A DNA stretch of 64,000 nucleotides from Candidatus Omnitrophota bacterium (GTDB taxonomy: Bacteria; Omnitrophota; Gorgyraeia; 2-02-FULL-51-18). The translations under genes and the position numbers were made by a program. Below, piece by piece: positions 17,090-54,403 of this stretch. Every line of letters begins with the position of its first letter. Position 1 is the stretch's first letter. Below the pieces are notes generated by a model that worked only from the letters and a program-made list of their open reading frames with translations, had not been told where the DNA came from and ran no database searches. The stretch spans positions 86,253 through 150,252 of the forward strand of contig CAMDWQ010000001.1 in the NCBI GenBank assembly GCA_945877765.1, written 5' to 3'.

Positions 17090-17098
17090 GACACGCTT

Positions 17099-18058: not shown

Positions 18059-18067
18059 AACTATAAA

Positions 18068-27354: not shown

Positions 27355-27371
27355 AAAAAAGGGCCCCGACG

Positions 27372-28154: not shown

Positions 28155-28162
28155 AAAATCGA

Positions 28163-36900: not shown

Positions 36901-39900
36901 GCGCCCGGCGGCCAATATTATCAAGGCGACAACTCACACCCTTCGGTGAAAGCGGTACGGCAGGTATACAAGGGACAACCAATGCTCGTTATTAGTGGAG
37001 ATCTTTCTTCGGTATGGAAAGAGCATAATCCTGAATATGATCTTGTGCTTCCTCTCGTCGACCAGGGTTCTGCTACCGGAGCTCGTCTGAGTAGCGGCGC
37101 TTTTCTTATCAAAAAAGGCATGCTTTTAGACCCAACCGAATTGGTAAGACCGCAAGAGGTAATCCCAAATGAAGTGTCGGGCAAAGCATATCTAGTCAAA
37201 AGATCCCCCGATGCTGTCGTCGCGGAGTCTTCGATCCGTCCATTCACAAGCGAGCCTTCTGCCGCGTTAAAGAGTGTCATTGCTAAACGTAAAGCATGGT
37301 TTTCAGAAGGAGCGCTCCGTTTATTAGGGATATCATTTCTCTCCGTTGTCATCTGGATTTTTGTGGATATGAACAGCCGCTCAACTAGAAAATCGTTAAG
37401 CACTTCAGCGCATGAAAATAATCCTCCGGCTGCCGCGGCTCTGGAAGAAAAGCCTTTAGTGCCAGAGTCTTCCCCGGTCGTCCCCTCGATAAACCAGGTG
37501 CAGGTTGTGGCAGGGGAGCACTTAAGAAAGGACTTGGCATCCGTGCTAGAAAAATCAAAATCGGAAGAAGAGAAAGCCGAGGAGCTAAAAGCCGCAAAAG
37601 AAATAGCCGAGACGGAACTGGCTTTGCTGGAGCAAGAAAAAAAACAAACTCAAGATGAGCTTGCGATTGTCTTTGCCAAAGAGCAAGTGGCAGAAGAAGA
37701 AAAAAATTCTGCTAGCCATGCACTGGAGGCGGCAAACACCCAGCGCGAACTATTCATCAAGCAAGCCTCACTCGTGGATCAGGAGATAGCGGCCATGGAC
37801 GAGGCGCAATTGCAGAAAGGTGCGGATGTACCGGTTAGTATCAAATCAGAAAGAAAAAAATTGTCGGCCGCCGATCTTGATCGGGCCGCAAGATCTACAG
37901 AGGAAGTTTTGAAATTCCAACCCGCTTTAAGTCCTTATACAAAAGAGCTTCTGTCTAACGGTGTGCTTCACAAGATCAATGAGAAATGGTCTTTTAAGCG
38001 ATTTGAAAGTCCTCAAAGAACCACTTGGTGGCCGTTGACCGAGCAACATCTTGAAGGCGTTAAAACACTTGAGCAGCATTGGAGAGATTCACGTCAAACG
38101 CTGACCGATGCTGGAGTCAACCGCAAGGAAAATGGCGAGTTTTGGGTCTCGGTAGATGGCACCAATTTCAAAATGCCCTTATTGGGAACCGATTTAGTAG
38201 GCATTTATTATCCCCAGAATAAAACAAAAGGTCAGCCTCAACTTTATTTTGTACAACTGGGCCGTGCGGCTTCTGCGAAAATCACACAACAAATCGCTAC
38301 CGAGAATTCTTTGGCGAGAATCGAGGCTGAAAAGAAAGCCCAGGAAGCTATCGAGAGTCACCGTCTTTTAATCGAGAAGAAAGCAGCGATTGATGTTCAA
38401 CATTTAGTGGTCGAGCAATCGATCAAGAGTTTTGGTGAGGAGATTCAAACAGCGGACGAAAAATGGCTAGGATTGAAAAACAAAGAGACCGAGCTCCAGC
38501 GGCTGATTCATTCTATTCAGATCGAAGAAGGTCGGGAAAAGCTGTTACAGCTTACTCACGAGGAAGAGAAGTCGCGTTCCGATGCCGATGAGTTGAAGAC
38601 TCAAGCGAAAAACCTCCAGCGGCAATTAGACGAAGCCCAAAAAAATATTCAATCAACAGAAAAGCCGAACACCTCAGAGACAACGCCGCCCGCCACTGCT
38701 TCGGTTTCGGAGCTTGCACCGCTTTTCAAAAAAGCTCTACAGGCTGATAATTTTATTCAATTCAGAGATCTTGAAAATAAATTTCTGGAACGCCTAGCCA
38801 AACTAAAACGAGGCGACAAAGACAAATTTTCTAAAGATGTCTTGGTGCTGCGCCAATTTCGCCAGTGGCACCTGTCCGTGAAGCGGATTAATGAGGCGAA
38901 GGCCCGAGCAAAAAATGCGGCAGCCACCGGTGATCTTGCGGCTTATCGCCGGGCACTCGGGCAATTTTATAATCACTTGGAAGTTTTGCGCGGTGTCGAA
39001 GAAAAGCTCCCGCCCGGACACCACTTTGTTAACTTCGACAAGGCGGCCAATAGCATTGTTTCGGCGGGAAAAGTATTTGGGGGTCGTAGTCCCGCGTCAC
39101 AGAAAATTGCCCGTCAAATTTTATCGCTTGCCGTCGCATCGACGGCGTCGGGAGGCCGTCTTGCGGCATCTTTTTCAACGGTAAACAACAGGAAATTTAA
39201 TCTTCTATTTCTGGTACCGCCGGGGGTCAGTGTCCAACAATTCTCGCGCCAAAATATCGATTTTAGAACCAGTCTTGGTCCAGCGGCATCGCGATTTAGC
39301 ACGCGCTACGCGCCAACGAGTGTTTATACCGAGCGTTTTCTCCGAGATAAAAATTACCCCGTGGATGCTATTTTGGACAGCACCTCGTCAACGCCTGAAA
39401 GTACTTTGCTACTTTTGACCAAACTTGCCGAAACGGATGCGCGGACGTTTTCAACACTCTATCCTTTCGTACAGCGTCTTCTGGCTCGTCCGGAAAATAT
39501 TTCTCGCTTGTCTTGGGCGGAGGAAGCGCTTCTGGCGGTGTGGGTTGAACAAACTCTACCCAATCCTGCTCCAAGGAGAACATTTGTCTCATCGGGACGT
39601 CTAGTCGCTCAACCTGAAATATTAACCAATCAAGCCGAGCAGGGCGGGCATTCTTCAGAAGTGCTTGCCTCGATACTGGATCAGGCGATGGCTCATACGA
39701 TACTTGCAGAAACTAAAGCAGAAAAAAATTCTGCACGGATCGACCTTCAAACGGCAACTGAAAATATTCTTCAATATCTTTCCCCATCATCCGCCGAAGA
39801 CGGAAGACTCGTATTTTCCGGCAAAGCCAATGCTTTGGCGCTTCAACTGGCTTCGACACAGCGCTCGCGCTATGCGCTTGTGGATCCCAGCTATCGCGTG

Positions 39901-40476
39901 GTTATTCCGGACGTTGCAGGCCAAGCGCGTAAAACGATTGTGACAGAGCTGGATGTGTTTGCCAAAGACGGGGCAGGAGTGCCTTGGAGTTACCGCATGG
40001 AGAATTTAGACCGTAAAGTTCCCGGAGTTTTTAATCACGTCTTATGGGTCAACGATTCTTCCATCCGCTCTCTGGCCGAATTGATCCGGCGGTATCCGCA
40101 GGCGGCGATTTTTGGAGACCAGGTGATTTTTGCGCCAAGCGCCAAAACACACAAAGATATTTACCAGGCACGCGGCACCGTCGCCATCGACGGCGAATCT
40201 ATCGTCCTTACGTCTAAGCCCGGCATGCTCGATGAGGGAACTCAGTCCGTTAGCGATGTCAGGCCCGCGATGGTTTTGGCTTTGGATGCGCAGGCAAAAT
40301 CTACCATCCGGTTTATGGAGGCCGGGGCGAGATACTTGCTGAATCATTCAGCATTGCCAGCATACGTATTTCGTCAACCCGACGGAAGCCTTGTTTTCAG
40401 ACTTCCGAATATAGTGCCTCTGGATTATATTCTTGAAAATCAGAGAGCTGCCCGAACCGCTGAAATGTCCGCTTGA
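30907..40476 (+). CDS. giant secreted protein A (3189 aa); conserved N-terminal module shared with B and C, GlmS-like segment, TM hairpins, long coiled-coil region
   Basis: Signal peptide MDEQKK...AVSAFLVVAFLSQDVAYA. Motifs IQDAH, LVEGGSGD and TGGFHS are shared with the two paralogues. HLRWATGGESTWDNAQPH (Ntn amidotransferase-like) and LAVSNSGQTQAVKAA (SIS-like) occur internally. Hydrophobic stretches around aa 1510-1570. E/K/A-rich heptad regions around aa 1850-2550. Confidence 0.8.
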   Translation: MDEQKKFKTQYGNRLKAVSAFLVVAFLSQDVAYAIGGINFNADSAKVASNPITFSNDTAIVRKFSQRSDEMVINIQDAHQKLGAQQSISSILDRLVWQYDLKLIAVEGGSGDVDTSALSSLPDEALRKKTGEHLLKEGLISAAEFYSIVSGNQVRLYGVEEDAVYRENLEVFKKLIDDKKDLRRELTLLQGALRSLEEKIYSPALKELEAKKMKHFRGQMKFAEYWEYFSSLAARLGIALDPYPNLEKISSTVVLEKNINFSAASAERESLIKRLSAELPKLSLEKLIFALLEFKQGKMASGKFYKNLVEMAEAASIEPTAYSNMSTYSRYVSLYEAIDLLAVFDEAERFESKIREALFANLEERNLWVLTHRVGIVSRLLDVTLDSADYEQIKSHKADFQIKKLKEDLFSLGVRHGFSTAGDVDFDRLEKNMPLALRFYELASQRNQILLANTLKKMRREKIQVAALVTGGFHSDGIAKLMEEEKISCLVVMPKFDEKSPDRPYISVLTKKPKEYEQLFKDSDFYLTAEVFFNHFPDYGEDRLAALVASLDRVSGKNHFTSGVVHQRDFVRRWVRGLRARTRDIQNPAVSVKKLNQALRGVSAVRREGDFYRVKVGEREFNVPLDQASREIDGSPIEITAVKAPASFLIETDSRQATAQDVSALVNQFSSKVSVWTMPGSTPRTVRVAVNREVERFERARKVRFTPQQKRSFQTVGARLCGPNLTARLRALPENQQPSIRFQPSKKPSIDVIRSPRQREVVRAQLEIAELRGGQSGGAAIMALDSKTGHVVVVFGKTKKRKRESPSVAVDAAVEKLVLKAANAGIVSLPEYDAEMSHLRWATGGESTWDNAQPHWHEEPKNVAVFGVSRQEHGGLKLGSKIMTVFNIIQHNGDLDYLKKSWLVNGIQQVVTLPFRKAREIYVRLMPRSKSRGTSDSKTIAEDVDFELTQGQVWKSVRYAYGKNFHDNSHQDLPFSEKTINDASAIATRCIEEVGLDLGDRFFNPGAVTLTDASPEAVLAVKQRVFDRFRDEKIFNKNSELEEFSDAFTKAFFYHDMAFVMRYLSFAFVGTAVVNVMSTLEPRWGVFAKTQSFSIGFNSEGVLGAAEPEAVTVPLMQDGDSTARQMFVPDGYYGTIEQDPRANNLIRLHAPLVEFDDLYQRPAPLSEGELHLFPVIGNPKIEVASGDIRQLASVENKNAIEDIPSVLKRVRESVLPGGRNRKALDHLKALITRQAQEWISDEETLIAKHAQEGRVHEAHKGGNYNLVLYGSDFNLDLIRRVADQMHGGMMDLNVAVMDSGELVELFKKKAAGREVPIGPNTIFLAVSNSGQTQAVKAAHSEIVKMQERGQLREGNNLVLTQKLFNALSSEGGQGYQLEDEVLPYTFLNLSHIRPDGSITRRNSEAASVTTAATEAVLTEMMIGAYQAVNDLAHNSAQNPQQLRPYRLAKDLTSEDFLAFREFQLAHYEQQAANRIGVDSEGQPITDSPDQKALGLEVEYRTQSVTEWIKGFMIFNLGYIALIACVLQLPLFGTALGSIFNARFDGALDAVFYLSGFWLTVVLIRWWEGRPLWDRILPRVEIFADHVGYSRIIERFNVALLANAQGFLSPLFYSANVVRDVLHRYSIRGWRGVLFYIYSPDETMGLKEAGDADSAGMVASQVRFNTFNAGGPHTHKILLQNSAYNRGMSKKSGHQDVGLSDVTDELKRKYSGKISETMQHLINRRLGDLSNYLIPEIVIGYRRAVNLSRFFNHVLDEIFLSSLVGKWPASVVRKTLVLVGFGWFHETFPIGESSGRAGILSTSHPVNSSLPGEDSARMLTRREAAQQNRKKVLSELVSAGAKEMEQSQILEEIEAEAIVIQKVAERTYQREIAEAEEVFANKVRTIEEHLTNAKALTNNPLIDDSFSPSLDARADRAREAAVAVREATMEQAGKRREAASENAILDAASPKIKALKANRHLPVPGNPDRIELSQTFDVVQADGGMDVYFPGGKRISFSLAPGGQYYQGDNSHPSVKAVRQVYKGQPMLVISGDLSSVWKEHNPEYDLVLPLVDQGSATGARLSSGAFLIKKGMLLDPTELVRPQEVIPNEVSGKAYLVKRSPDAVVAESSIRPFTSEPSAALKSVIAKRKAWFSEGALRLLGISFLSVVIWIFVDMNSRSTRKSLSTSAHENNPPAAAALEEKPLVPESSPVVPSINQVQVVAGEHLRKDLASVLEKSKSEEEKAEELKAAKEIAETELALLEQEKKQTQDELAIVFAKEQVAEEEKNSASHALEAANTQRELFIKQASLVDQEIAAMDEAQLQKGADVPVSIKSERKKLSAADLDRAARSTEEVLKFQPALSPYTKELLSNGVLHKINEKWSFKRFESPQRTTWWPLTEQHLEGVKTLEQHWRDSRQTLTDAGVNRKENGEFWVSVDGTNFKMPLLGTDLVGIYYPQNKTKGQPQLYFVQLGRAASAKITQQIATENSLARIEAEKKAQEAIESHRLLIEKKAAIDVQHLVVEQSIKSFGEEIQTADEKWLGLKNKETELQRLIHSIQIEEGREKLLQLTHEEEKSRSDADELKTQAKNLQRQLDEAQKNIQSTEKPNTSETTPPATASVSELAPLFKKALQADNFIQFRDLENKFLERLAKLKRGDKDKFSKDVLVLRQFRQWHLSVKRINEAKARAKNAAATGDLAAYRRALGQFYNHLEVLRGVEEKLPPGHHFVNFDKAANSIVSAGKVFGGRSPASQKIARQILSLAVASTASGGRLAASFSTVNNRKFNLLFLVPPGVSVQQFSRQNIDFRTSLGPAASRFSTRYAPTSVYTERFLRDKNYPVDAILDSTSSTPESTLLLLTKLAETDARTFSTLYPFVQRLLARPENISRLSWAEEALLAVWVEQTLPNPAPRRTFVSSGRLVAQPEILTNQAEQGGHSSEVLASILDQAMAHTILAETKAEKNSARIDLQTATENILQYLSPSSAEDGRLVFSGKANALALQLASTQRSRYALVDPSYRVVIPDVAGQARKTIVTELDVFAKDGAGVPWSYRMENLDRKVPGVFNHVLWVNDSSIRSLAELIRRYPQAAIFGDQVIFAPSAKTHKDIYQARGTVAIDGESIVLTSKPGMLDEGTQSVSDVRPAMVLALDAQAKSTIRFMEAGARYLLNHSALPAYVFRQPDGSLVFRLPNIVPLDYILENQRAARTAEMSA

Positions 40477-41298: not shown

Positions 41299-44200
41299 AT
41301 GTCAATCGTTGAAAAATTTGCTTTTTACCTGTTTATCAGCCATATTTTATGCATAGTTAAGCAATCTTATGTATGGGGTTCACTAGGCTATAAACAAGGG
41401 GATTTTGTATTGAATAATCGTAGTCTTTTAATAAGACATATCTCATTGGTGCTAATCGCGACTTTTTTGTGCCAAGAGTTGTCTTACTCAGCACCTGCTA
41501 TTCTGACACCAGCCGCACTTAGCGATTCCGTGGCTTCCTTTCAAGCCCCCACTGAGTTTTGTTCCCTGAAAGAATTTCACCAGGGGCAGGTAGGCAAACC
41601 CTTGATCATTCATATCCAGGATGCCCACTCCAATCTTTCCGGCCAGGAAAATCTCGCTAAGACCCTGGATCAAATCATGACCAAGTACAGTGTCTCCACT
41701 GTGCTCGTCGAGGGCGGTGGCACTGACGGCACGCTGGATCCTCTCAAGCAACTAGCGTCCCCTGAAATCATCCGGCGTATCGCCAAAAAGTTACTCATCG
41801 AAGGCAAGCTTGCAGGCGAGGAATATCTAAATCTGACTTCGGATCACCCAATGAAGATTCAGGGAATCGAAGACATGACCCTCTACAAAAAAAGCGTTGA
41901 AAACTATGCGAAGCTCGCCGATAGACGTGAGGCGATACAGGACTATCTGTCGGTTATTGAAAGATCTGCCGAGAAACTAAAGCGTAAATTATACCCCCAA
42001 GAGCTAATTTCCTACGAAGCGCAAAAGCAAAAGGACACGGATGGAGCTCTGGGATTTAAGTTCAAAGAACTTTTGAGCCTGGCAAAATTAAAAGAGGTGG
42101 AGATCACCAATTTCCCCAACCTTCAAAAACTGTCAGCTCTCGAGGAAAAGGAAAAGAGCATTGATTTCAATCTTGCGAATTTGGAACAGGCGGCGTTGAT
42201 GGAAAAAATCAACACAACGTCATCCCCGAAATCTTTAATCGGGGATCAAACCAAGTATGATTCCCGATTAAAACTCTCGGGAATGACGGTAGATCAATTT
42301 ACCTTCTTTCGTAACATTTTAAATATCGCCAAAGAAAAGAACATTGCCACTGAAGAATATCCCAACCTTCTGCGTTATTTTAATTATTTAAAAGACTTCA
42401 CCGATTTAGATCTGGAAGAAGTCCTAAATGAGTTTGAGCATCTAGAGGATAAAGTCTACGTAGCATGGCTCCCTAAAGAGGACTCGCGCCTTCTTCGCGC
42501 CATTGACCGCTACCTCGCCCTCTTAAAAATTGCTTACCGCATCCAGATGTCCACCAAGGATTTTGAATTCTTTAAAGCCAACGAGCCTGATTTTTCTACT
42601 GCGTCTTATCAGGCATTTTTGAACCGAAAATTAATAGAGCTTGGGTATTTTGAGGATGTGATTCCGTATAAGAATATCTTGGAAGAAGGCAAAAAAGCGT
42701 TGGAGGATTTTTATGATTCGGTGAGCCAGAGAGACCTTGCGTTTATTCAAAACACGAAACGGATATTGGGAGATTCTGTCATCCCCGCGAAAGCGGGGAT
42801 CCGTTCATCACTCGGTGCAGATTCCCGCTTTCGCGGGAATGACAACGCTAACATAGCTGTCCTCATCACTGGCGGTTACCACACGTCTCACTTGAAAAAA
42901 CTTTTTCAACAAGAAGGTTTCTCCTATGTAGTTCTGACACCGATCGTGACCGCCGAGACCAACCAGAAAAAATATGAAAATCTCCTTCTCTCAAGTGTTC
43001 GGAAGGAATCTAAAACAATCGAGGTCGTGCAGGGAGAATCCAAGCAAAATAAAACCTCAGTTCAATTGGATGTAGATTTATTAAAGATTGCAAAAAAAGA
43101 GGGTGCGCGTTTTGCGGGGGCGGTGATGACGCCTGCGAGGCTTGCTCAGACGTTGGAATCGTTCGGAGGATTAAATGACAGAGCGCTTAATACAATTCAA
43201 AAGGAATTCGCGGCAAGACTCGCGAACAACATCTCCGAAGAGACAAAAACTCCGGCGGCGACGCGGTTGGCGAATGAGCCAATCGCATCCTCAAACAACC
43301 CCTCTAGGTTGGGCTTGGTAGCTTTAACTTTAAATCTCAGGGTGGCGCTGTGGAAGCTTTCCTTGTACAGCGGATTTTCATTTGGACGTCTGCAGACGTT
43401 TTCATGGTTGGAAAAAAACGATCAGGGGTATTCGAATAGCTATTGGTTGTCGCCTCGGAAAACCGCGACATGGCAGGGAAAACAGGTCATCCCAAATTCC
43501 CGTTTAAGAAAATCCGGAATTCAACTCCATACTTTAGCCCTGACGCTTCTTGATCTTATGGACCAGGGGTTGTCCGATCCTTTGAAAGAGGAACTATTTC
43601 GTTTACTGGAAAAATCCGTTGCGCAACATAATCTATTGGCGCAATCAGAACATGATCCCGGAGCCAAGATGTCTTTACCGCTTCTACTTGTCAGAGCAAC
43701 GAGTGTCTTAATCAGGCCGGATAGTAATTATGTTCGATTGTCGCGCGCCATGATGCAAGCACCGAAGCGCTTTTTAAAGCCCATAGCCATTCTTCAGCTT
43801 AGAGCTAAGCAGATCCATCTCAACTTTATTTATTTATCGCCCGACATAGTGGATTTTTACGCTAGCCATGAGGCTATAAAATTTATTCTTGAGCCCGAAA
43901 ACATAGAAGACCCAAAACTTAAAAGCGCACTCATTGGATTTTTGGCAGGTGTTTTTAAAAAAAAGACTTGGCAGGACCTAGCGAAGATGGTGGAGGAATA
44001 TGGTTTGGGAGAGTTTGATGTTAACTCTGACGATTCCAAAGCGATGTTTGATGATTTTAAGACTCTCCTAAAAAAGCATGATATCCAGATGGTGAATTGG
44101 ATGAAAAGCCAAGCGTTGTCGACGGGATTGGAAAGAATCGGGGTTCAGTTTCTTCCCTATCTTGAGTTGTCGCGGCTTCTCACATCGCATTCGGAAAATT

Positions 44201-47200
44201 TAGAATCTTTATTGTTGGATCCGCAGAGCGCTTCAAATCAATCATTTTTTTTAAAAATATCCAAGGATGTCACTTTTGGTCTAGAGCCCAGCGCCCGGAA
44301 TATTGTTGAGGGCATTTACATTCAAGAGGACATAGATGTTGACCAATACTATCAAGACGTTTCCAACAACTTCATGACTTTCGAAAATGTCGGCGCGCGG
44401 TCGGCGAATAGTTTAAGCGACCAGATTAATTCTATACAGATTGATCAAGCTTTAGAAGATCAGGCTGGGCTGATTCGTGATGTCTTGCAAAAAGCCATGA
44501 CCAATCTTTTTGAGGTTGACTCTCCGGAGTATTTACGCGTTCTTGAAAGCCTGAAAAAACTAAGGTTTATGCGAGCGTATCAAAAGCGCGGTCATGAAGG
44601 TGCCAGCAGCCACTATGTGCCTAATTATATTTCTTTGATGTCATTCGCCGATGAACATACGATTATTCATGAATTCGGCCATCACCTAACCTATGCTTTA
44701 AAATTAAATGATCCAGTATCTGTGATGGGAAATATCACCGAAGCTGTTTATGATGCGGGAGAAAATCAACGTGATCCTACACATTTCCAAATCGGGGCAA
44801 AGTTTGTCGATGATTTTTCAGCGGAAAAAATTACCGACCCCGAATTCAAACTGCAAATAATGCGGCTTTGGAGTGAACGCGAATATAGGGAGGGGCCTAT
44901 GGGTGATATCAAGGAAGCATATACCTCGGCAACTATTCTCGCGGGCATTCTCTATGAACTAAATGGCAGAGATAAGAGAAAAGCTATGAATGCCGCTATT
45001 CACCTTTCTAAAGAAGACTGGTTCACGAGAGCGCTTGCCGTGGATCGCAAGCTTGAATTTTTTAAAAATTTGGCGAGTCTTGGATTAATCGCCCCGCTTG
45101 CGATGGGATCCTACAGAGCTGCATTTGTTGCCTATCGAGCGACGAATTCGGTTTTATATGGAGCCCTTGCTTTTATGGTGCCCATTATTTCTGTGCTGCC
45201 TTTTTTATTTTATTTAGGCCCAAAACTTTTTACTTACTGGGAAAACAAATTTTTTCAATCCATTGATTGGGGGCCTCCTTTTGTTGTGAACGCTAAAACA
45301 AAAGCGACTTTGTTGCAGGCCGAGGGACCAGAGAATGTGGGGGCGCGGTTGGCAGTTAGAGATGAGTTGGCTGGTGAAATCTCTCGCGGTGAATGGGATT
45401 TATTTGAGAGGCGCTTCGAAGCTTATGACAGGGACACATTACTTAGTTTGCTTACAACCTTAAGCCAAATGGCTCACGATTCAAATAAGAATGTGACGAC
45501 TGAGATTTCTGGGGATGCCGCGAGAAGAATATTTGGGATTCTGTCGGATTCATATCTAATTGAGTATTACCAGGATCCCTTCATCATGGCTTGGTATACG
45601 ACTCTTGCCCAATCCCTGATGGTTTTGATGCCTGACCAGGGTGACGAGAATACTATACTCGCGCGAAAAACACACGAGGAAACCACAGAGATGGTTCTGA
45701 TATCTGTGCTTGCTCATGTCAAATTTTCAGATCTATTGAATAGGCTGGTTTCTGATTTTGAGCCTGTCCGCCACCGTCGAGTTGTCCAGGCATTGTTCAG
45801 CAAATTTGAAAGTGAAGATGAGAGCGCAGAGGATATCGTGAGGGTTTTGCAGGATGATTTCACAGGTGGCCATATGTTCCGGCTATTTTTATTTATTTGG
45901 CAACATTTTGACCAGCCATTTGCCCAAAGCGTCGCAAGGCTTTTGAGGAAATTAAATAGGTATTTAAAGCTTATAGGTCAAAGTGAGGCGATGTTGTTGG
46001 ACGCGCAGATTGAAATTTTTAGAAGCGCTCTGTTTTCTGATAATGTAGCTGAGAGAAAAATTGCGATCGCCTTCTTTAGTGAGTTCATCCAAGGGGGTGT
46101 CACCGATACGCCTGAATTTGTAAATCGCTTGAAGAAATTGTACTGGAGCGTGGCGGAAAGTCTTGATATTTACGATCAGAGTACGGCGTCATATATTCGG
46201 AATATATTATTTTCCCAAACACATTCAATTGATGCCGCCGACTTAAAGGAGCTGGACGCTGATAGACTTGATCACCACCGTTTGGAATATCGAGATCAAG
46301 GGGTTATCGACATGGTTTTATATCATCTCTATGACTCTTTTGGTTTCGACATTCGAAGAAAGGAAATACGCGAGCAAATCATTGCCAATACCTATTTTTC
46401 GGACATCCTTGATATCGTTCTGACCAATCTTTCCGACGACGATTCCCCTTTTGCCGCCAATTTTAACTATGCAACTAAACTACTGGCCCTTAGAGAGCTT
46501 TTTGGTTCTCGAGGTGAAGGTATGACCCCGACTGGAGCCCAGGAGATGATTATCGACATCGTAGTGGATATCACGGCGGAGAGGATGGATGATGCCGCGC
46601 GGCTTGCCTCGCTAAACATTCCCTCCGGCTGGAAAAGATGGGCGCCGGCTGGGGCGGTGGTGATGGGACTTATTTTTTCGTCGAAGGGTAATACCCTTTC
46701 ACAAGTTAATCAACAGCCTGCGTCAGCGGTTGCTCATGATGGAGTCGGGGCGCCTGAGGTAAACAGCCTTAAGCAAATATTCAAAGTTGCTGGTGGCCCT
46801 ATGAAGAGCGCAAATGAATCTGATATCCTCAACATCGACAATGAATCGGTTCAATTGATCACCCGGTGGTATGTGGGGATGCACGGAAACACGCAGGGTC
46901 CAGCCTCTGTTATGATACAGACCAAACACGCGCTTATTACCTTTGTCCATGAGGAGGGAGATCCGGAGATTCAGTTTCGCGATGTGGCTAATACAGCGGA
47001 GATTCTTGGACGCATTCCTCTTTCTGTGGACATGCTAAATGCCGCTAAAACTGCCAATGAAGAGGCGAAGGCGCTTCCTACCGAACAAGTTATGAACGTT
47101 GAGGCCGAAGCTCTCGCGGCCGCGGTTAAGACAAGAAGTATTAATCACCTGGTGGTTAAGCGCCTATTTCCTTGGATACTCAAAAATATTTTAGAGGATC

Positions 47201-47784
47201 AGCAGGTGGTGATTTTCCAGGCAATTGACCGTGATCGTATCAGTCAAGATCCGATCGCCAAGGCGCAAATGGACCTTATCGAAGCGACGATCAAATCCAT
47301 CCAAAATTTGCTTGGCGAAGAAAAGAAAAAATTCGTTCATTTTGTATTTACGGATCCAAAGGGAGTTGCACAATCAGATGTATCTAGATTTAACTCCAAA
47401 GAATTTAGAAAGATTTATGTCGCCCAGCCAAACACAGATGTTCTCCATCAGGCTTATCTTGCGCAAGCAGGATTTTTTGCGTTACCGGACCTGTCCAAGG
47501 GAGATGGTGTTGTTCCACTACAAGCCTTGTATTCGGGAGCGCTTGGTGTGGCTTTGTCAGAAACAATGACCGATCCGCTAGCCTGGAGCCTGAATAAATT
47601 AATTCGTCCGGACTCTTCGTCAACACTGGATCCTCAAAAAGACTACCCAAGACTCAAACAAGTGACTAACGAGAAGGATAGAGATTACTTTGGGAATCTT
47701 ATGATCAGGCCGCTTGCTATCAATATTCAGGCATACCTCACCGCCGCTCGCTTGGCCATCCAGTATGTGGAGAGCGCGGCTTAA
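41299..47784 (+). CDS. giant secreted protein B (2161 aa); shared N-terminal module, HEFGHH zincin motif, two in-frame foldback-repeat insertions
   Basis: N-terminal signal-like LIRHISLVLIATFLCQELSYSA. The real start is possibly the TTG at 41410. Motifs IHIQDAHSN, LVEGGGTDG and ITGGYHTSHL. HEFGHH at 44668-44685. Hydrophobic hairpin around 45080-45240. Confidence 0.8.
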   Translation: MSIVEKFAFYLFISHILCIVKQSYVWGSLGYKQGDFVLNNRSLLIRHISLVLIATFLCQELSYSAPAILTPAALSDSVASFQAPTEFCSLKEFHQGQVGKPLIIHIQDAHSNLSGQENLAKTLDQIMTKYSVSTVLVEGGGTDGTLDPLKQLASPEIIRRIAKKLLIEGKLAGEEYLNLTSDHPMKIQGIEDMTLYKKSVENYAKLADRREAIQDYLSVIERSAEKLKRKLYPQELISYEAQKQKDTDGALGFKFKELLSLAKLKEVEITNFPNLQKLSALEEKEKSIDFNLANLEQAALMEKINTTSSPKSLIGDQTKYDSRLKLSGMTVDQFTFFRNILNIAKEKNIATEEYPNLLRYFNYLKDFTDLDLEEVLNEFEHLEDKVYVAWLPKEDSRLLRAIDRYLALLKIAYRIQMSTKDFEFFKANEPDFSTASYQAFLNRKLIELGYFEDVIPYKNILEEGKKALEDFYDSVSQRDLAFIQNTKRILGDSVIPAKAGIRSSLGADSRFRGNDNANIAVLITGGYHTSHLKKLFQQEGFSYVVLTPIVTAETNQKKYENLLLSSVRKESKTIEVVQGESKQNKTSVQLDVDLLKIAKKEGARFAGAVMTPARLAQTLESFGGLNDRALNTIQKEFAARLANNISEETKTPAATRLANEPIASSNNPSRLGLVALTLNLRVALWKLSLYSGFSFGRLQTFSWLEKNDQGYSNSYWLSPRKTATWQGKQVIPNSRLRKSGIQLHTLALTLLDLMDQGLSDPLKEELFRLLEKSVAQHNLLAQSEHDPGAKMSLPLLLVRATSVLIRPDSNYVRLSRAMMQAPKRFLKPIAILQLRAKQIHLNFIYLSPDIVDFYASHEAIKFILEPENIEDPKLKSALIGFLAGVFKKKTWQDLAKMVEEYGLGEFDVNSDDSKAMFDDFKTLLKKHDIQMVNWMKSQALSTGLERIGVQFLPYLELSRLLTSHSENLESLLLDPQSASNQSFFLKISKDVTFGLEPSARNIVEGIYIQEDIDVDQYYQDVSNNFMTFENVGARSANSLSDQINSIQIDQALEDQAGLIRDVLQKAMTNLFEVDSPEYLRVLESLKKLRFMRAYQKRGHEGASSHYVPNYISLMSFADEHTIIHEFGHHLTYALKLNDPVSVMGNITEAVYDAGENQRDPTHFQIGAKFVDDFSAEKITDPEFKLQIMRLWSEREYREGPMGDIKEAYTSATILAGILYELNGRDKRKAMNAAIHLSKEDWFTRALAVDRKLEFFKNLASLGLIAPLAMGSYRAAFVAYRATNSVLYGALAFMVPIISVLPFLFYLGPKLFTYWENKFFQSIDWGPPFVVNAKTKATLLQAEGPENVGARLAVRDELAGEISRGEWDLFERRFEAYDRDTLLSLLTTLSQMAHDSNKNVTTEISGDAARRIFGILSDSYLIEYYQDPFIMAWYTTLAQSLMVLMPDQGDENTILARKTHEETTEMVLISVLAHVKFSDLLNRLVSDFEPVRHRRVVQALFSKFESEDESAEDIVRVLQDDFTGGHMFRLFLFIWQHFDQPFAQSVARLLRKLNRYLKLIGQSEAMLLDAQIEIFRSALFSDNVAERKIAIAFFSEFIQGGVTDTPEFVNRLKKLYWSVAESLDIYDQSTASYIRNILFSQTHSIDAADLKELDADRLDHHRLEYRDQGVIDMVLYHLYDSFGFDIRRKEIREQIIANTYFSDILDIVLTNLSDDDSPFAANFNYATKLLALRELFGSRGEGMTPTGAQEMIIDIVVDITAERMDDAARLASLNIPSGWKRWAPAGAVVMGLIFSSKGNTLSQVNQQPASAVAHDGVGAPEVNSLKQIFKVAGGPMKSANESDILNIDNESVQLITRWYVGMHGNTQGPASVMIQTKHALITFVHEEGDPEIQFRDVANTAEILGRIPLSVDMLNAAKTANEEAKALPTEQVMNVEAEALAAAVKTRSINHLVVKRLFPWILKNILEDQQVVIFQAIDRDRISQDPIAKAQMDLIEATIKSIQNLLGEEKKKFVHFVFTDPKGVAQSDVSRFNSKEFRKIYVAQPNTDVLHQAYLAQAGFFALPDLSKGDGVVPLQALYSGALGVALSETMTDPLAWSLNKLIRPDSSSTLDPQKDYPRLKQVTNEKDRDYFGNLMIRPLAINIQAYLTAARLAIQYVESAA
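42219..42286. repeat. Foldback (MITE/RPE-like) repeat copy embedded in-frame in giant gene B
   Basis: gtcatccccgaaatctttaatcggggatcaaaccaagtatgattcccgattaaaactctcgggaatgac. Translated in the gene frame as SSPKSLIGDQTKYDSRLKLSGMT. Confidence 0.8.
42778..42843. repeat. Variant foldback repeat copy embedded in-frame in giant gene B
   Basis: gtcatccccgcgaaagcggggatccgttcatcactcggtgcagattcccgctttcgcgggaatgac (two GAAA/TTTC-looped hairpins). Translated as VIPAKAGIRSSLGADSRFRGND. Confidence 0.8.
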
Positions 47785-47954: not shown

Positions 47955-48692
47955 CTAGGGAAGACTTCTTTCGATCTCGGTAAGAAGTGTGGATTTAAAA
48001 TTTTTAAGCAACACATGCTGGCCAGTGGGCAAGAATCGCTTAAGTTCGCTTCGTATATCGAGTTTTTGGCGGTCAATCATGGCTAGAAGTTTCGTCTTCA
48101 ATGTTTTATCCTTCGAAAAAGTTTCCTTGAACGCCATGCGGCTTCGCAAGATAAAATAAACGTCGTAGAAATCCCGGGCTTTGGCGCGGGTCAGGCAAGC
48201 TTGAATCTTCTCGGCAACCAATCTCTTTTGGTCAAGATGCACCAACGTGTAAGGCGGCAATAAATCTGAATTGACCAGAGAGGCGACACCGGCATCTTTT
48301 GGCTGGGCTCGAAGAGAAACTTCCACTTGAATGCCGCTTTCGTATTCGTCCGTTTTGAAATGGAAAATGGCAAGATAGCCGCCGGATGTTTTCTTGGATT
48401 CTTCGATATCTGTTTTAATCCCTTCGCTTTCAATCTTTTTCAGGACAGCTTCCATCAGCGATTCAATTCCGGCGATGGAAATTTTTGAACCCGTAAAATC
48501 CAGATCCTCGGAAAATCGGGGACTTCTCCAAACAAGCCGCAACGCGGTTCCTCCTTTGAAAAGAAGAGATTCGGATTTCTTTTCCTGATACAGAAAAGAA
48601 AGAAAAAGGTGCTGGAGGTATTCCCTCACAACGTTATCCATTGTCGTTTGGTAGCGATCCGAAAATTGTTTAAGAGTTTTTGCCTCAATCAT
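47955..48692 (-). CDS. abiEii: AbiEii/AbiGii-family nucleotidyltransferase toxin (DUF1814, type IV TA)
   Basis: LLFKGGTALRLVWRSPRFSEDLDF is the nucleotidyltransferase motif of AbiEii. 245 aa. 4-nt overlap with the upstream AbiEi gene. Confidence 0.85.
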   Translation of the reverse strand: MIEAKTLKQFSDRYQTTMDNVVREYLQHLFLSFLYQEKKSESLLFKGGTALRLVWRSPRFSEDLDFTGSKISIAGIESLMEAVLKKIESEGIKTDIEESKKTSGGYLAIFHFKTDEYESGIQVEVSLRAQPKDAGVASLVNSDLLPPYTLVHLDQKRLVAEKIQACLTRAKARDFYDVYFILRSRMAFKETFSKDKTLKTKLLAMIDRQKLDIRSELKRFLPTGQHVLLKNFKSTLLTEIERSLP

Positions 48693-49282
48693 AGAATGCT
48701 CTTTACAAGTTTTGTGAGGCTTTTTCTTTTAAAAAAATGGGCGTAAGAAAGTACCGACTTTTTATTGATGTTTCGGAGATTCAACCTCTCGTTTAGAGTT
48801 CTTCGCTTTAAATCAACGAAATAAAGGTAATCAATCAAGGCTTTCTCAGGCTCGGCAATGAAAATTACTCCTTGCCCTTTTTTCTCGGATCGATACCCTC
48901 GGTAGGCTTCGATTTTAATTCGGTAGTATTCATAGGATTTTTCTTGCGCTGTAAATTCCCTCGTGATTTTCGGCGTCGCTGAGGTGATTGTATAGACGGA
49001 TTCGGGGATGATACGGTAGTGAGCCAGTGCATACTCAAAAGATACGTAGGAAGGAAAATAAAGCCGGTTGGCTATTTCAAGCTCTGCCGGAGGATCCGAT
49101 TTAAGTCCATAGAGACCATTGCGAAGTTTGATAAAAATATCTTTCGTATGGTTCTTGATAAAAGCTTGAGCCGCCCATTCTTTAACCGAAAAAATACGAC
49201 GAAACTCTTCAGGTGAAAAGAGCCGGAGCCCCTTCGCCCTCAGTGTTTCCTGGACTTTTATAGGTTTCAGTTTTTGTGTCAT
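48689..49282 (-). CDS. abiEi: AbiEi-family antitoxin / transcriptional regulator
   Basis: 197 aa. N-terminal winged-helix-like region and C-terminal AbiEi_4-type domain. Canonical position upstream of AbiEii. Confidence 0.75.
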   Translation of the reverse strand: MTQKLKPIKVQETLRAKGLRLFSPEEFRRIFSVKEWAAQAFIKNHTKDIFIKLRNGLYGLKSDPPAELEIANRLYFPSYVSFEYALAHYRIIPESVYTITSATPKITREFTAQEKSYEYYRIKIEAYRGYRSEKKGQGVIFIAEPEKALIDYLYFVDLKRRTLNERLNLRNINKKSVLSYAHFFKRKSLTKLVKSIL

Positions 49283-49704: not shown

Positions 49705-49788
49705 AACATCGTTTTTTAAGTAAGTCTTTTCAAAATTAAAAGCCAGCCGGTCTCTTCTTTGCCGCCTACTCCCCAGCGGTTTTATTTT

Positions 49789-50868
49789 ATGGATGCTTTG
49801 CGTGCAGGAGCGATGATTGCCGTCGTCTTTCTGCATGCCTCGATTACTTACATGACCATCCGGATTCCGGATCTTGCCTGGCATATACAGGAAGCCTACG
49901 CGGTGCCGTTTTTTGACGGCTTTTTTTTATTCATCCAGGGATTTGTCATGCCTCTTTTTTTCATTCTTTCAGGATTTTTTTCCGAGTACTTAACGCAGTC
50001 TGCGGGAGCTTCCGGTTTTCTGACCAATCGGAAAAATAAAATTTTATTCCCATTTCTCTGGGGATGCCTGATTCTTTTGCCGGTGATTTATTTTATCTGG
50101 TCTTACGGATGGTGGATGTCCGGCCAGTGCGAATTGGGTGAAGTTGTAAGAGTGAATTTTTCTAGCCCATTTCTTAAAAAAAATTTGTATGGCCCCGCTC
50201 ATTTATGGTATCTCGAGTATCTTTTAATTTATTCCATTGTTTTTTTTCTATGGCGAAAAACACGAAAGCTGCCGGCTGTCCCTGCTTTCCTTTTTGTGCC
50301 GGCAACGGCGCTCATTCTTTTCTTTGGGCCGAGCGCGATGTTTAACTTTAAAAATTCTTTTGTGCCGGACCCGATGCGCCTTCTTCACTACGCTGTATTC
50401 TTTTATTTTGGGGCATGGTTTTACGCTTTTGGCCAAAAGTCGGACCGCTGGGTGCGTCTGGCGCCGCTGTGTTTGGTTTTGTCGCTTGTCGCTTTTTTGG
50501 TAGAGATGAGTTGCTTTCTACAGCAACAACCCATCGTTGCTGGAAGCATCGGATCAGCGGGCTTGGCGGTGTCGACGGCTTTTTTCACTTGGTTTTTTAT
50601 CGTGGGATGCCTGGGTCTTGGCTTTAAATTTTTTAACCGGCCCATCAAGTGGATCCGCTATCTCTCGGATGCCTCCTACTGGGTTTACTTGATTCATCTA
50701 CCGGCGGTGGGCTTGGCTCAGGTGATATTATTTCAATTTCATCTATCTTCCGTTTTAAAATTTTTAATCGTTGCTGTGTCGGCCATGGTTTTTAGCTTGC
50801 TCAGCTATCCTATTTTTGTCCGCGGTTTGGGCAGGGTAGGTTTTTTTAAAAGGAAGGCTGTGTTATAA
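49789..50868 (+). CDS. acyltransferase family 3 (OafA/OatA-like) integral membrane protein
   Basis: MDALRAGAMIAVVFLHASITY, typical of the acyltransferase-3 N-terminus, followed by about 10 TM helices. Start placed at an internal ATG. Confidence 0.8.
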   Translation: MDALRAGAMIAVVFLHASITYMTIRIPDLAWHIQEAYAVPFFDGFFLFIQGFVMPLFFILSGFFSEYLTQSAGASGFLTNRKNKILFPFLWGCLILLPVIYFIWSYGWWMSGQCELGEVVRVNFSSPFLKKNLYGPAHLWYLEYLLIYSIVFFLWRKTRKLPAVPAFLFVPATALILFFGPSAMFNFKNSFVPDPMRLLHYAVFFYFGAWFYAFGQKSDRWVRLAPLCLVLSLVAFLVEMSCFLQQQPIVAGSIGSAGLAVSTAFFTWFFIVGCLGLGFKFFNRPIKWIRYLSDASYWVYLIHLPAVGLAQVILFQFHLSSVLKFLIVAVSAMVFSLLSYPIFVRGLGRVGFFKRKAVL

Positions 50869-50875
50869 TTTGTCC

Positions 50876-51847
50876 ATGAAAACTATTTTAGTGACGGGTG
50901 GGGCAGGCTACATCGGTTCGGCGATGGTCCATGAATTGATTGCCGAAAAATACAGGGTCGTTGTGCTGGATGATCTTAGCATGGGGCATCGGAGGCTGGT
51001 GCCAAAACAGGCGGAATTTTTCAAAGGCGATTTAAAAAATATTACTGACTGCCGACAGATTTTTAAAAAATATAAAATTACCGCGGTGATGCATTTTGCG
51101 GCGTCGGCTCTAGTGGGTGAGTCGGTTGCCAAGCCTCTTCTTTATTATCAAAATAACACAGCAGCCTGCGTGAATCTTCTTAATGCCATGCAGGAAGCCC
51201 GCGTTCACCAGTTTATTTTTTCATCCACCTGCGCCACTTACGGGGAGCCCAAGACGATTCCGATGCCAGAGTCTCATCCCCAGGATCCGACCAATCCTTA
51301 CGGCCGGTCGAAGCTTATGATTGAGTGGATGTTAAGAGACCTCGCAAAAATCTCCAACTTTTCTTACATTGCCTTGCGGTATTTTAATGCCGCGGGCGCG
51401 CATTCATCGGGGTTGACGGGGGAAATTCACGAACCCGAGGCTCATCTAATCCCCAACATTCTTAAAGCGGTGCGCAACCCCAAAAGAAAATTGGTGATTT
51501 TTGGAGGTGATTTTGACACGCCAGACGGTACTTGTATGCGGGATTATGTGCACATTCAGGATATTACCCACGCGCATTTTTTGGCGCTTAAGGCGCTGGG
51601 GAGGGGCGTGAAGAATGAAGTGTTTAATCTGGGGCTTGGACGGGGGATATCCAATCTTGAGATTTTAAAAATGGCTGAAAAGGTGACGGGTAAAAAAATT
51701 GGCTACAAAATTGGAGCGCGGCGTCCGGGGGATCCCTCTCGGCTGGTGGCTGATAACTCCAAGGCTAAGAAAATACTTGGGTGGACTCCTAAGCGCGGAT
51801 TAGAGGAGATTATTCGGTCGGCGTGGGAGTGGGAGTTATCACTGTAA
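50876..51847 (+). CDS. galE: UDP-glucose 4-epimerase
   Basis: MKTILVTGGAGYIGS, the YGEPK.. region and YxxxK. About 324 aa, GalE family. Confidence 0.9.
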   Translation: MKTILVTGGAGYIGSAMVHELIAEKYRVVVLDDLSMGHRRLVPKQAEFFKGDLKNITDCRQIFKKYKITAVMHFAASALVGESVAKPLLYYQNNTAACVNLLNAMQEARVHQFIFSSTCATYGEPKTIPMPESHPQDPTNPYGRSKLMIEWMLRDLAKISNFSYIALRYFNAAGAHSSGLTGEIHEPEAHLIPNILKAVRNPKRKLVIFGGDFDTPDGTCMRDYVHIQDITHAHFLALKALGRGVKNEVFNLGLGRGISNLEILKMAEKVTGKKIGYKIGARRPGDPSRLVADNSKAKKILGWTPKRGLEEIIRSAWEWELSL

Positions 51848-51982: not shown

Positions 51983-53776
51983 TTAACCAGCCAAACTTTC
52001 CGTTTGGATTACTAAATCTTCCAGAATTTTTAATCCCGACTTCCAAAAATCTTTATTCTTAATATCTAGCCCTGCAATCTTGGCGATGTCTTCGGGTTTT
52101 TTGGAGCCGCCAAGAGAAAGCATTTCAAAATACTTGGGAATAAATTCTTTGGGGTTCTCTTTGTATTTTTGGTAGAGGGAGAGGACAAAAAGCTGGGCAA
52201 AGGCGTAGGCGTAGCAATAAAATGGTGAGTGGACAAAGTGTGGAATGTACTTCCAGCCGTGGCGGTAATTGTCCGTGAGGACGACACTTTTTCCATAAAA
52301 GCCTGCGTTAACCTGTATCCAAAAATCGCTTAGGCGGTCGCTTGAGAGCTCGCCTTCTTTTAAACCTGATTCATGGGCCAGAAGCTCAAAATCGGTCATG
52401 GTGATCTGGCGAAACACTGTCGCAAAATTATCATCGATTTTTCCGCACAGAAGTGCTAGTCGTTTTTTGGGATCTGTTTCTTTTTCGAGAATTTTTTCAA
52501 AAATAAGCATTTCACCGAAAACGGAAGCGCATTCGGCCATTGTCAGCGGCGCGCCTGATTCCAAAATCCCCGAGCGGCGGGCCAGGTACTGGTGCATGCC
52601 GTGGCCGAGTTCGTGGGCGACGGTCATGACGTCGCGGAGACTGCCGGTGTAATTGACGAGAATGTAGGGGTGGAGTGACGGGGTAGTTTCACAACAGAAA
52701 CCACCGCCTTGTTTTCCCTCGCGGACTTCGGCGTCGATCCAGCGGCGTGTAAAAAACTGCTCGACGATTTTCCCAGCCTCCGGCGAAAAGGCGTTGTATC
52801 CATCCAAAACAATTTGGCGGCACTCGGAAAAATCAATTTTAGTTTCCTCAGCTTCGACGGTGGCGTAGCGGTCGTAATCGTACATCGTATCCAGCCCCAA
52901 GAGTTTTTTCTTAAGCGCATAATAGCGCTGTGCTAGCGGAAAGGCCGCGTGGACGTTCTCGATGAGATTGCGCACACTTTCTAAATCAATCTCATTGGAA
53001 AGGTTCATGGCGTCCATGGGGTGTGCGTAATTGCGAATCTTAAGCGACGAGCGGTGATCGGCGAGAATCATATTGTAGATATAAGTCAGAAGGTGCGTGT
53101 TTTGCGAAAGGCCCTCGGCCAGACTGTCAGAGGCTTTTTTTCTTTCGGTGCGGTCGGCGCTGTGAAAAAGAGACAGGACTTCGCCCTCGGTTTTTTTGAC
53201 GCGCTGGCCCTGGCTTTCGATATAAAAGGGAATGTTGTTCATTACCTCATCAAATAGCCGCGAGAAGGCACTGCCGGACGTATTGGATTTGATGGACATG
53301 ATTTTTTCCTCGCCCTCGGCGAGTGTGTGAGGCGCCCAAACGCGCATTTTTTCAAGAAAATGGCGGTCGTTTTGTACGGAGGCATCGCTCATCAGCCGGT
53401 CGGCTATTTTGGCGTCGAGTTTATTCCAGCGGACTTCAAAAAAAAGTAGGTGGGCGTTGATATCCGTGAGTGTCACCTGGATTTTTTGCATGAAGGCGCC
53501 GATTTTGGCGTCGTTGGTTTTTCCGGCAAAGGACAGATGAGAAAAAACTCCCGGTTTAGTCAGGAGCTCGATGATTTCTTTGTAGTCCTTGAGCAGATCC
53601 GCCAGAGGGAAAGCGCTTTTTTCATCCAAAGAATCAAAAAGTGGCTTGTATTGACTTTCAAAGCCTACTGCCCGCGACTGTGCCAGATTCAGGTCGGACT
53701 GAATCTTGGGGTCCTCCATAGAAGCATAAAGATCAGACAAATCCCAGCGGATACCCTTGGCAAAATTTTCTGACAT
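51983..53776 (-). CDS. pepF: oligoendopeptidase F (M3B metallopeptidase)
   Basis: HELGHGMHQY zinc-binding motif, M3 family length (597 aa) and conserved C-terminal region. Confidence 0.9.
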   Translation of the reverse strand: MSENFAKGIRWDLSDLYASMEDPKIQSDLNLAQSRAVGFESQYKPLFDSLDEKSAFPLADLLKDYKEIIELLTKPGVFSHLSFAGKTNDAKIGAFMQKIQVTLTDINAHLLFFEVRWNKLDAKIADRLMSDASVQNDRHFLEKMRVWAPHTLAEGEEKIMSIKSNTSGSAFSRLFDEVMNNIPFYIESQGQRVKKTEGEVLSLFHSADRTERKKASDSLAEGLSQNTHLLTYIYNMILADHRSSLKIRNYAHPMDAMNLSNEIDLESVRNLIENVHAAFPLAQRYYALKKKLLGLDTMYDYDRYATVEAEETKIDFSECRQIVLDGYNAFSPEAGKIVEQFFTRRWIDAEVREGKQGGGFCCETTPSLHPYILVNYTGSLRDVMTVAHELGHGMHQYLARRSGILESGAPLTMAECASVFGEMLIFEKILEKETDPKKRLALLCGKIDDNFATVFRQITMTDFELLAHESGLKEGELSSDRLSDFWIQVNAGFYGKSVVLTDNYRHGWKYIPHFVHSPFYCYAYAFAQLFVLSLYQKYKENPKEFIPKYFEMLSLGGSKKPEDIAKIAGLDIKNKDFWKSGLKILEDLVIQTESLAG

Positions 53777-53802: not shown

Positions 53803-54273
53803 TTAGTGGGAATGGCCGTGTTCGCCGTGCGCGTGGCCGTGTTCAAGCTCTTGCGCCGTGGCTTCACGAAGGCCTGTGATTTCGATCGCAAACGTCAAAT
53901 CCACACCTGCCAGCGGATGATTACCGTCCAAAGACACCTCGGTGTCATGGATTTCGGTGACGGTAAAAACCGGCGAGTGGTCGTCGGCGCCTCCACGGAA
54001 TTTATCCCCGAGCTTTATTTCTTGGGTCGGAAGGGAAGATTTGGGGGCCTTGATGATCAATTCCGTGTCTTTTTCGCCGTACGCATCAGCGGCGACGACA
54101 TTAATTTGTTTCTTATCGCCAATGTTTAATTGTAGCAATTCTTTTTCAAGTCCCGGAATAATTTGTCCCGCCCCCTCCATAAACGTAAGGGGTTCGCGGC
54201 CTGCGGACGAATCCATGGTGGCACCGAAAGCGTTGGTCAGTGTGTAATGGAAGGAAATCACTTTTGGGGTCAT
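53803..54273 (-). CDS. slyD: FKBP-type peptidyl-prolyl cis-trans isomerase SlyD-like with His-rich C-terminal tail
   Basis: MTPKVISFHYTLTN...FMEGAGQIIPGLEKEL is the FKBP/SlyD fold. The C-terminus ELEHGHAHGEHGHSH is a metal-binding tail. Start placed at the internal ATG at 54273. Confidence 0.85.
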   Translation of the reverse strand: MTPKVISFHYTLTNAFGATMDSSAGREPLTFMEGAGQIIPGLEKELLQLNIGDKKQINVVAADAYGEKDTELIIKAPKSSLPTQEIKLGDKFRGGADDHSPVFTVTEIHDTEVSLDGNHPLAGVDLTFAIEITGLREATAQELEHGHAHGEHGHSH

Positions 54274-54403
54274 CGACGTCTCCTGTTTATTTAACGGCGA
54301 TAATTCTACCACACAATCTTTTGGGGGAGGTAAGGCCTTTATTTGTAGGATTTTTTTGGGACGGGTGATAAAATACCGTGCATGTTCACCCGAGGGCATT
54401 CCG

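Follow-up and report, generated by a model that had tools for sequence, protein, structure and literature searches.

The giant proteins of Omnitrophota have been described as "Archaeovorins" (West-Roberts et al. 2023, bioRxiv 10.1101/2023.11.21.568195) and as "multi-enzyme metabolic clusters" (Nielsen and Lui 2026, bioRxiv 10.64898/2026.06.07.730766); these preprints depict membrane-anchored mosaics of enzyme modules (glycolytic, methyltransferase, HATPase, HEAT, and peptidase) with many unannotated stretches. We analyzed a 64,000-nucleotide stretch of DNA from a Candidatus Omnitrophota bacterium (positions 86,253 to 150,252 of contig CAMDWQ010000001.1; hereafter, the window) that encodes three paralogous large proteins: A (3189 amino acids (aa); open reading frame (ORF) 30907-40476), B (2161 aa; 41299-47784, + strand; identical to database protein P0001), and C (database protein P0046; 2502 aa; starting at nucleotide 56611 on the + strand and extending past the window end at 64000). 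These proteins resemble the described giants in their Omnitrophota origin, membrane anchoring, mosaic construction, and unannotated stretches, whereas their lengths are far under the thresholds of those catalogues, 7-10 thousand aa (kaa) or more. The subject of this analysis is a segment of B that carries the sequence HEFGHH, a form of the HExxH motif, and that also occurs in proteins of 4.8-6.7 kaa. Residues ~1038-1347 of B constitute an autonomous module, and our results somewhat favor the interpretation that it acts as a zinc-dependent hydrolase, probably a zincin-type peptidase, which would be tethered to the cytoplasmic membrane on its outer side.

HEFGHH is encoded at 44668-44685 (+), as originally predicted, and corresponds to residues 1124-1129 of B; the peptide quoted in that prediction, ADEHTIIHEFGHHLTYALKLNDPVSVMGNITEAVYD, was found exactly and is in frame within the ORF. 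No ORF of at least 150 aa overlaps B on the opposite strand, and the base composition is even along the whole of B. The small residue that was said to precede the motif is instead Ile1123 (TII-HEFGHH).

Relatives of this segment were sought with an exhaustive phmmer search against 1.84 billion representative proteins (cluster representatives), which provided six true relatives. A scan of GTDB species genomes added one more (L001), for a total of seven relatives and eight modules when B is included. Two of the relatives, P0103 (427 aa, E value 6.5e-21, on five contigs) and P0104 (529 aa, 1.8e-15), are complete stand-alone genes. The other five are cassettes within proteins of 2.9-6.7 kaa, namely P0105 (6685 aa, 4.1e-15), P0106 (2911 aa, 1.4e-06), P0107 (4782 aa, 1.5e-06), P0109 (5514 aa, 2.0e-05), and L001 (a 6734-aa ORF in a metagenome-assembled genome labelled "uncultured Planctomycetia"). 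The N-terminal hydrophobic segments of P0103 and P0104 resemble signal peptides or anchors; with their stand-alone nature, this feature makes the module an autonomous unit that is probably located outside the cytoplasm. The L001 module is the closest relative of that in B, with ~67% identity over the aligned stretch (64% for the tblastn match). Two further candidates, P0108 and P0110, were rejected since they are repeat proteins that match only the hairpin (described below) or the motif, with per-domain E values >0.01. A metagenome contig scan with the B/L001 alignment yielded no relatives. A word-index protein search using either the module or the eight-sequence profile returned no match, not even B itself; because the exhaustive phmmer search had found relatives, we attribute this null result to a limitation of the index and not to their absence.

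Comparison of B with the L001 ORF indicates where the module begins and ends. The two proteins have only two blocks in common, one that contains the module (B aa 1016-1357) and one that corresponds to the C-terminal domain (B aa 1820-2161), and in both proteins the close similarity around the module begins right after a GAR(S/L)A sequence and stops at the next GARL(A/S). In B, these sequences are GARSA (44392-44406, +; aa 1032-1036), located just upstream of the module, and GARLA (45340-45354, +; aa 1348-1352), which closes it. Since the similarity is bounded by GAR motifs in both B and L001, the module is a shuffled cassette. It extends from 44410 to 45339 (+; aa 1038-1347, ~310 aa) and, as judged from the homologues, their alignments, and an AlphaFold2 model, is composed of a ~200-aa soluble domain, a helical membrane hairpin, and a DWGPP tail.

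The eight modules are highly divergent, with pairwise identities of 19-32% except for the B/L001 pair (70% in the alignment). The His, Glu, and His residues of HExxH are nonetheless invariant in seven of the eight, which are 21-32% identical, consistent with the expectation that the motif would be conserved in homologues, and are present as HEFGHH in B, L001, and P0107, HELGHH in P0106, HELGH in P0105, HETGH in P0104, and HEVAH in P0103. The P0109 module (aa ~1149-1443) has lost all three residues together, with RDYGY replacing HEFGH, while the domain is otherwise retained, as are its hairpin and the GARMA that closes it; this module is probably an inactivated pseudo-enzyme copy. Among the seven HExxH-bearing modules, 13 of 214 alignment positions (referenced to B) are invariant: F1071, L1088, I1111, H1124, E1125, H1128, P1139, G1144, G1166, Y1208, L1214, L1221, and W1241. 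Three of these 13 are the His, Glu, and His of the motif.

An AlphaFold2 model of the module was built from a seven-sequence alignment that omitted L001 (adding 1037 to a model residue number gives the residue in B), and it had a predicted local distance difference test (pLDDT) score of 81.2 and a predicted template modeling (pTM) score of 0.75. A single-sequence model of aa 1028-1287 exhibited a pLDDT of 41 and was unusable. The predicted structure begins with a short strand (9-10), two helices (13-33 and 39-48), a strand (52-55), a low-confidence loop, and another strand (73-76). This last strand coincides with the sequence YISLM (44626-44640, +), which includes the invariant I1111 and lies just before the motif helix; on the basis of the model it is a candidate substrate-binding edge strand. 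Helix 82-96 bears HExxH, helix 106-114 bears E1148, and three more helices follow. After these come a low-confidence loop, a helix (171-184) that starts just after E1206, and two very long helices (203-245 and 248-283). The order strand, helix, strand, strand, motif helix, and helix is that of the zincin catalytic core, and the predicted order of elements in the module is compatible with it. Likewise, the predicted succession of a strand with its backing helix, a pair of strands, the active-site helix, and one further helix resembles the minimal zincin core.

Because the His, Glu, and His residues are jointly invariant in a confidently folded domain and jointly lost in one member, HExxH is most simply viewed as functional, with H1124 and H1128 as putative zinc ligands and E1125 as a putative general base. 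The alternative that HEFGHH arose by chance in a non-enzymatic helical spacer draws on the facts that any single HExxH is weak evidence and that the region is unrecognized by Pfam and NCBIfam. C offers a useful example of such an accident: it carries HETAH at aa 361-365 (window 57691-57705), within the N-terminal domain shared by the family, and this sequence is not kept in other family members and is represented by a KEDSR-type sequence at the equivalent place in B, so that it looks like a chance occurrence. The prior claim that A and the visible part of C lack an equivalent motif therefore holds for A, where HExxH is absent, and holds for both proteins with regard to the module, whereas C does possess an unconserved HExxH. 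For B, however, the expected number of HExxH sequences is only 0.052 (calculated analytically from its composition, with 41 His and 144 Glu), and that of HExxH-x(17-21)-ExxxD is ~0.001 (also composition-based). Those values, the retention of the three residues in seven homologues at ~25% identity with their joint loss in the eighth, and the confident folding of the region (pLDDT of 81) make a chance origin hardly credible.

A Glu about 20 residues downstream of the motif had been suggested as the third zinc ligand. B does contain such a residue, E1148 (44740-44742, +), at H1128+20 on the helix after the motif helix, and it is followed by D1152 in an ExxxD arrangement (EAVYD). B thus reads HEFGH-x19-EAVYD, like the thermolysin-type gluzincins (M4; HExxH-x19-ExxxD). 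In contrast to the M4 enzymes, this signature is not conserved in the family: the residue is Glu in B, P0103, P0106, and P0107, whereas it is Ala, Arg, Gly, and Trp in L001, P0104, P0105, and P0109, respectively, and the first three of these latter modules lack ExxxD despite having an intact HExxH. The suggestion accordingly fits B and fails for half of the modules, including that of its closest relative. E1206 and Y1208 (E1206-A-Y1208; 44914-44922, +) make up a better conserved candidate pair, in which E1206 is the best conserved downstream acidic residue (Glu in seven of the eight modules and Asp in one) and Y1208 is invariant in the seven HExxH-bearing modules; this site may provide the third ligand in place of E1148 or else assist catalysis. 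B retains both options.

The M3 peptidases (oligopeptidase A, PepF, and thimet oligopeptidase; clan MA(E)) have HEFGH in the same local context, as seen when ISLMSFADEHTIIHEFGHHL is used as the query against oligopeptidase A. When a single sequence was compared by phmmer with the PDB, the top two matches were M3 oligopeptidase A entries, with E values of 0.6 and an in-register alignment (query stretch ISLMSFADEHTIIHEFGHHLTYAL). The window itself encodes a PepF at 51983-53776 (-), identified by a Peptidase_M3 Pfam match (E value 5e-50) plus an M3_N domain, and we used this protein as an in-genome reference zincin. Alignment of the family profile with PepF by hhalign placed 67-70 columns in register. 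The aligned part starts at the helix that precedes the strands, takes in the strand-loop-strand-helix stretch, and continues past the motif helix, with a probability of 11-14% and a P value of ~0.002; self matches aside, no piece of any ORF in the window scored better. In both proteins a Glu is found on the next helix, at H+20 in B (GNITEAV) and H+23 in PepF (TMAECAS). The differences from M3 are nevertheless considerable. Neither the pieces of B nor the eight modules gave a Pfam match to Peptidase M3 (PF01432), even at E≤10, the soluble part of the module is ~200 aa compared to ~600 aa for PepF, the module has a C-terminal membrane hairpin, and the module family does not conserve the H+20 Glu.

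HtpX/Ste24 (M48) and BlaR1 (M56) provide a different comparison, in that an HExxH domain is joined to transmembrane helices at the cytoplasmic membrane. In the module, the two long helices noted above (45016-45258, +; aa 1240-1320) are interpreted as a membrane hairpin; the hydropathy peak covers aa 1285-1303, and the hairpin is found in all relatives. It is followed by the DWGPP motif (45265-45279, +; aa 1323-1327; DFGPP also occurs), the first residue of which, D1323 in B, is Asp or Glu in all seven HExxH-bearing modules and is a further third-ligand candidate. The spacing from H1128 to E1206 is 78 residues, which would fall within the range for the third ligand of M48 enzymes, and true M48 domains (PF01435) are present, along with ABC1, as cargo in the sister proteins P0011 and P0042. 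Unlike the M48 and M56 peptidases, the module has no Pfam or NCBIfam match to PF01435 or PF05569, and its hairpin comes after the catalytic domain, not between HExxH and the third ligand.

Several results weigh against assigning the module as a peptidase. Pfam and NCBIfam provided nothing relevant for B or for the eight modules, even though the Pfam cutoff for the module and its relatives was as lenient as E≤10; Pfam analysis of four pieces of B at the same threshold gave no match, and searching the complete A and B proteins against Pfam and NCBIfam yielded nothing useful. PDB profile searches at E≤10 returned only irrelevant hits when the hairpin was included and none when it was excluded. 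Foldseek comparison of the pLDDT-81 model with the PDB (best E value 1.1) and with BFVD (best E value 0.41) revealed no significant match, no solved zincin, and no peptidase among the credible hits; the query included the long hairpin, and this feature together with the helical C-terminal half may swamp the ~115-residue core. The metallopeptidase fold anticipated around the motif was thus not detected by any of these searches. In addition, HExxH windows of other giant proteins equal the PepF hhalign score over only 8-20 columns, which implies that the PepF signal comes mostly from the motif itself. No third ligand is invariant, since E1148 is Glu in four of the eight modules and E1206 is Asp in one, and the family is tiny (eight sequences), so the conservation statistics are coarse.

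These observations bear on an alternative according to which the module binds metal through HExxH and is not a peptidase, acting instead on another substrate (peptidoglycan or other envelope components, or nucleotides) or possessing a structural or regulatory metal site. The missing homology or fold match to any peptidase and the variable third ligand are both in keeping with this idea, as are the cargo domains of the sister proteins, which are mostly metabolic enzymes and not proteases, and the portrayal of these Omnitrophota proteins as multi-enzyme clusters in the literature (10.1101/2023.11.21.568195; 10.64898/2026.06.07.730766). On the other hand, the weak matches that were seen are all in-register alignments to M3 peptidases. 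Moreover, when the first His is directly followed by an invariant Glu and the helix bearing them comes after a strand, this is the catalytic signature of zincin hydrolases as established for clan MA, and not that of a purely structural site. On balance we regard a non-peptidase role as rather unlikely and prefer the zincin-type hydrolase interpretation. Because membership in M3, M4, M48, and M56 was examined and the module was found to belong neither to these nor to any other catalogued family, it probably represents a new, very divergent, and previously uncatalogued zincin-like family.

If the module is such an enzyme, H1124 and H1128 would bind Zn2+ from a single helix and E1125 would activate a water molecule. 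The third ligand may be E1148 on the next helix, with spacing as in thermolysin and the M3 enzymes, or the better conserved E1206, and Y1208 may stabilize the transition state. Substrate binding would take place along YISL, the edge strand that immediately precedes the motif helix. The long helices of residues 1240-1320 are predicted to anchor the domain in the membrane, with the DWGPP segment returning to the same side, so that the module would be tethered by its hairpin on the membrane side reached by the signal peptide. Within B, the module is a single cargo cassette, flanked by the N- and C-terminal domains that the family has in common.

The remainder of B places it in a large protein family. 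A search with the whole sequence identified 102 proteins (B and 101 others) of 1.3-3.8 kaa, with E values down to 6e-267, and where the source names an organism it is almost always Omnitrophota/Omnitrophica. BLAST coverage showed that nearly all of these relatives match B only over aa ~80-620, that a few also match the last ~340 aa, and that none match aa 750-1850. The module profile revealed no further copy in the other 101 family proteins or in A and C. Near the N terminus of B, a hydropathy scan located a hydrophobic segment (41425-41481, +; aa 43-61; LLIRHISLVLIATFLCQEL), which probably serves as a signal peptide or signal anchor and would direct export; P0105 has a similar N terminus. The family-defining N-terminal domain follows at 41539-43098 (+; aa ~81-600) in B, 31060-32499 in A, and 56701-58329 in C, and is common to >100 proteins. 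This domain (~550 aa) has invariant IQDAH, EG, RD, and GGxH residues; A aligns at 23% identity, and C also aligns. It gave no Pfam, NCBIfam, or PDB sequence match, a PDB profile search included. Its invariant residues may be reminiscent of the TIKI/TraB/erythromycin-esterase superfamily. The other three modules of B provided nothing significant against the PDB.

The conserved C-terminal domain (46756-47781, +; aa 1820-2161), which has ...ESAA as its last residues, shares 48% identity with the C termini of P0002 and the L001 ORF. Family members typically terminate in ...(V/I)G(A/S)(A/S)A, with B ending in QYVESAA, the L001 ORF in AVGGAA, P0109 in VQAAA, and A near 40440-40473. This Ala-rich tail is reminiscent of C-terminal recognition tags.

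The cargo carried in the middle of these proteins is diverse. Pfam detected GAPDH, PGK, and TIM in P0081 and phosphoglucomutase, PFK, and PGI in P0067, and elsewhere in the family kinases, methyltransferases, HEAT repeats, and HATPase domains are present. Central-metabolism enzymes are thus fused into proteins with a signal-peptide-like N-terminal segment. C contains an FBPase_3 domain (FBP aldolase/phosphatase) at aa 1348-1532, and neither A nor C has the HExxH module, in agreement with the proposal that the paralogues carry different effector domains. Constant N- and C-terminal domains surrounding variable cargo place B in a modular family and not in a dedicated protease or toxin class. Its sequence features mark B as a modular protein that is anchored in the membrane and belongs to an Omnitrophota-type family, with the HExxH part accounting for one ~310-aa cassette of its 2161 residues, and the description of B as a giant secreted protease or toxin-like protein has to be abandoned. 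HExxH is enriched ~5-fold across the 102 family proteins (31 observed vs 6.0 expected), mostly in a hydrophobic-then-HE[LFI]xH context such as DTIIHELAHW in P0004, NMAHELGHH in P0014, and TVFHEFGHA in P0016. These regions align neither with each other nor with the module of B, which suggests that the family contains several unrelated small HExxH cargo modules.

The GAR sequences that flank the module belong to a GARLA-type motif, (A/S/T)-G/A-A-R-L-A, that recurs between modules. In B, such motifs are encoded at 43102-43116, 43210-43224, 44392-44406, 45340-45354, 46594-46608, and 47743-47757 (+), and in A they occur at aa 717, 2058, 2749, 2896, and 3140 of its ORF. Over the 102 family proteins, GARL was observed 166 times compared to an expectation of 9.9 (~17-fold). 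Homology blocks start ≤20 aa from a GARLA-type motif in 32% of cases vs 9% for random points (n = 60, binomial p ~1e-6), and they end near one in 22% of cases vs 9% (n = 18, p 0.08). The motif could be a processing, recognition, or module-boundary signal. No mention of the GARLA delimiter, the shared N-terminal domain, the ...G(A/S)AA C terminus, or the HExxH module was found in the searched passages of either preprint on Omnitrophota giant proteins.

The bracketing of the HExxH module by these motifs in B and L001 raises the question of whether it could itself be a processing protease, one that would cleave B and other giants of its kind at GARLA motifs and set free single modules in the manner of a polyprotein protease. 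The excess of GARL in the family and the proximity of block starts to the motif are consistent with this scheme, and West-Roberts et al. (10.1101/2023.11.21.568195) propose cleavage of such proteins at points given as unknown. The distributions of motif and module do not match, however. The module is very rare, being absent from the other 101 family proteins and from paralogue A; P0103, P0104, P0105, P0106, and P0107 have an intact HExxH and no GARLA motifs; P0109 has 13 GARLA motifs and a dead HExxH; and the distant family members P0081 and P0067 are without GARLA motifs. We consider cleavage at GARLA by this module to be very unlikely and reject the module as a universal GARLA-processing enzyme. 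A broader speculation, which we judge improbable, is that the GARLA motifs are the long-sought sites at which the Omnitrophota multi-enzyme giant proteins are cut or organized into separate modules. The HExxH module would then represent a new zincin-like family specific to this system, whether it does the processing or is a membrane-tethered effector that the processing releases.

The large and giant modular proteins of Omnitrophota are mostly unannotated. The present analysis defines one dark module by its boundaries, stand-alone homologues, invariant HExxH, membrane hairpin, and confident model. P0103 or aa 1038-1240 of B would serve as a small expressible test object, and if the module is active, the peptidase catalogue would gain a new zincin-like family and these scaffolds a protease arm. 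The GARLA delimiter and the shared N- and C-terminal domains supply a rule by which they can be divided into modules for use in structure prediction and proteomics; this by-product may matter more than the HExxH motif.

The genes near B encode other functions. Directly downstream, 47955-48692 (-) specifies a nucleotidyltransferase toxin of the AbiEii type, which belongs to the type IV toxin-antitoxin systems (Pfam E value 4e-29), and the overlapping upstream ORF at 48689-49282 (-), which has no Pfam match, may be an AbiEi-type partner. An FKBP-type isomerase (53803-54471, -) adjoins PepF. On either side of the giant genes, at 28163-30140 and 49759-51847 (+), there are several genes for NAD-dependent sugar epimerases/dehydratases and one for an acyltransferase_3. 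These flanking genes belong to a long same-strand run at 14745-30660, which suggests that envelope polysaccharide synthesis adjoins the genes for the giant proteins.

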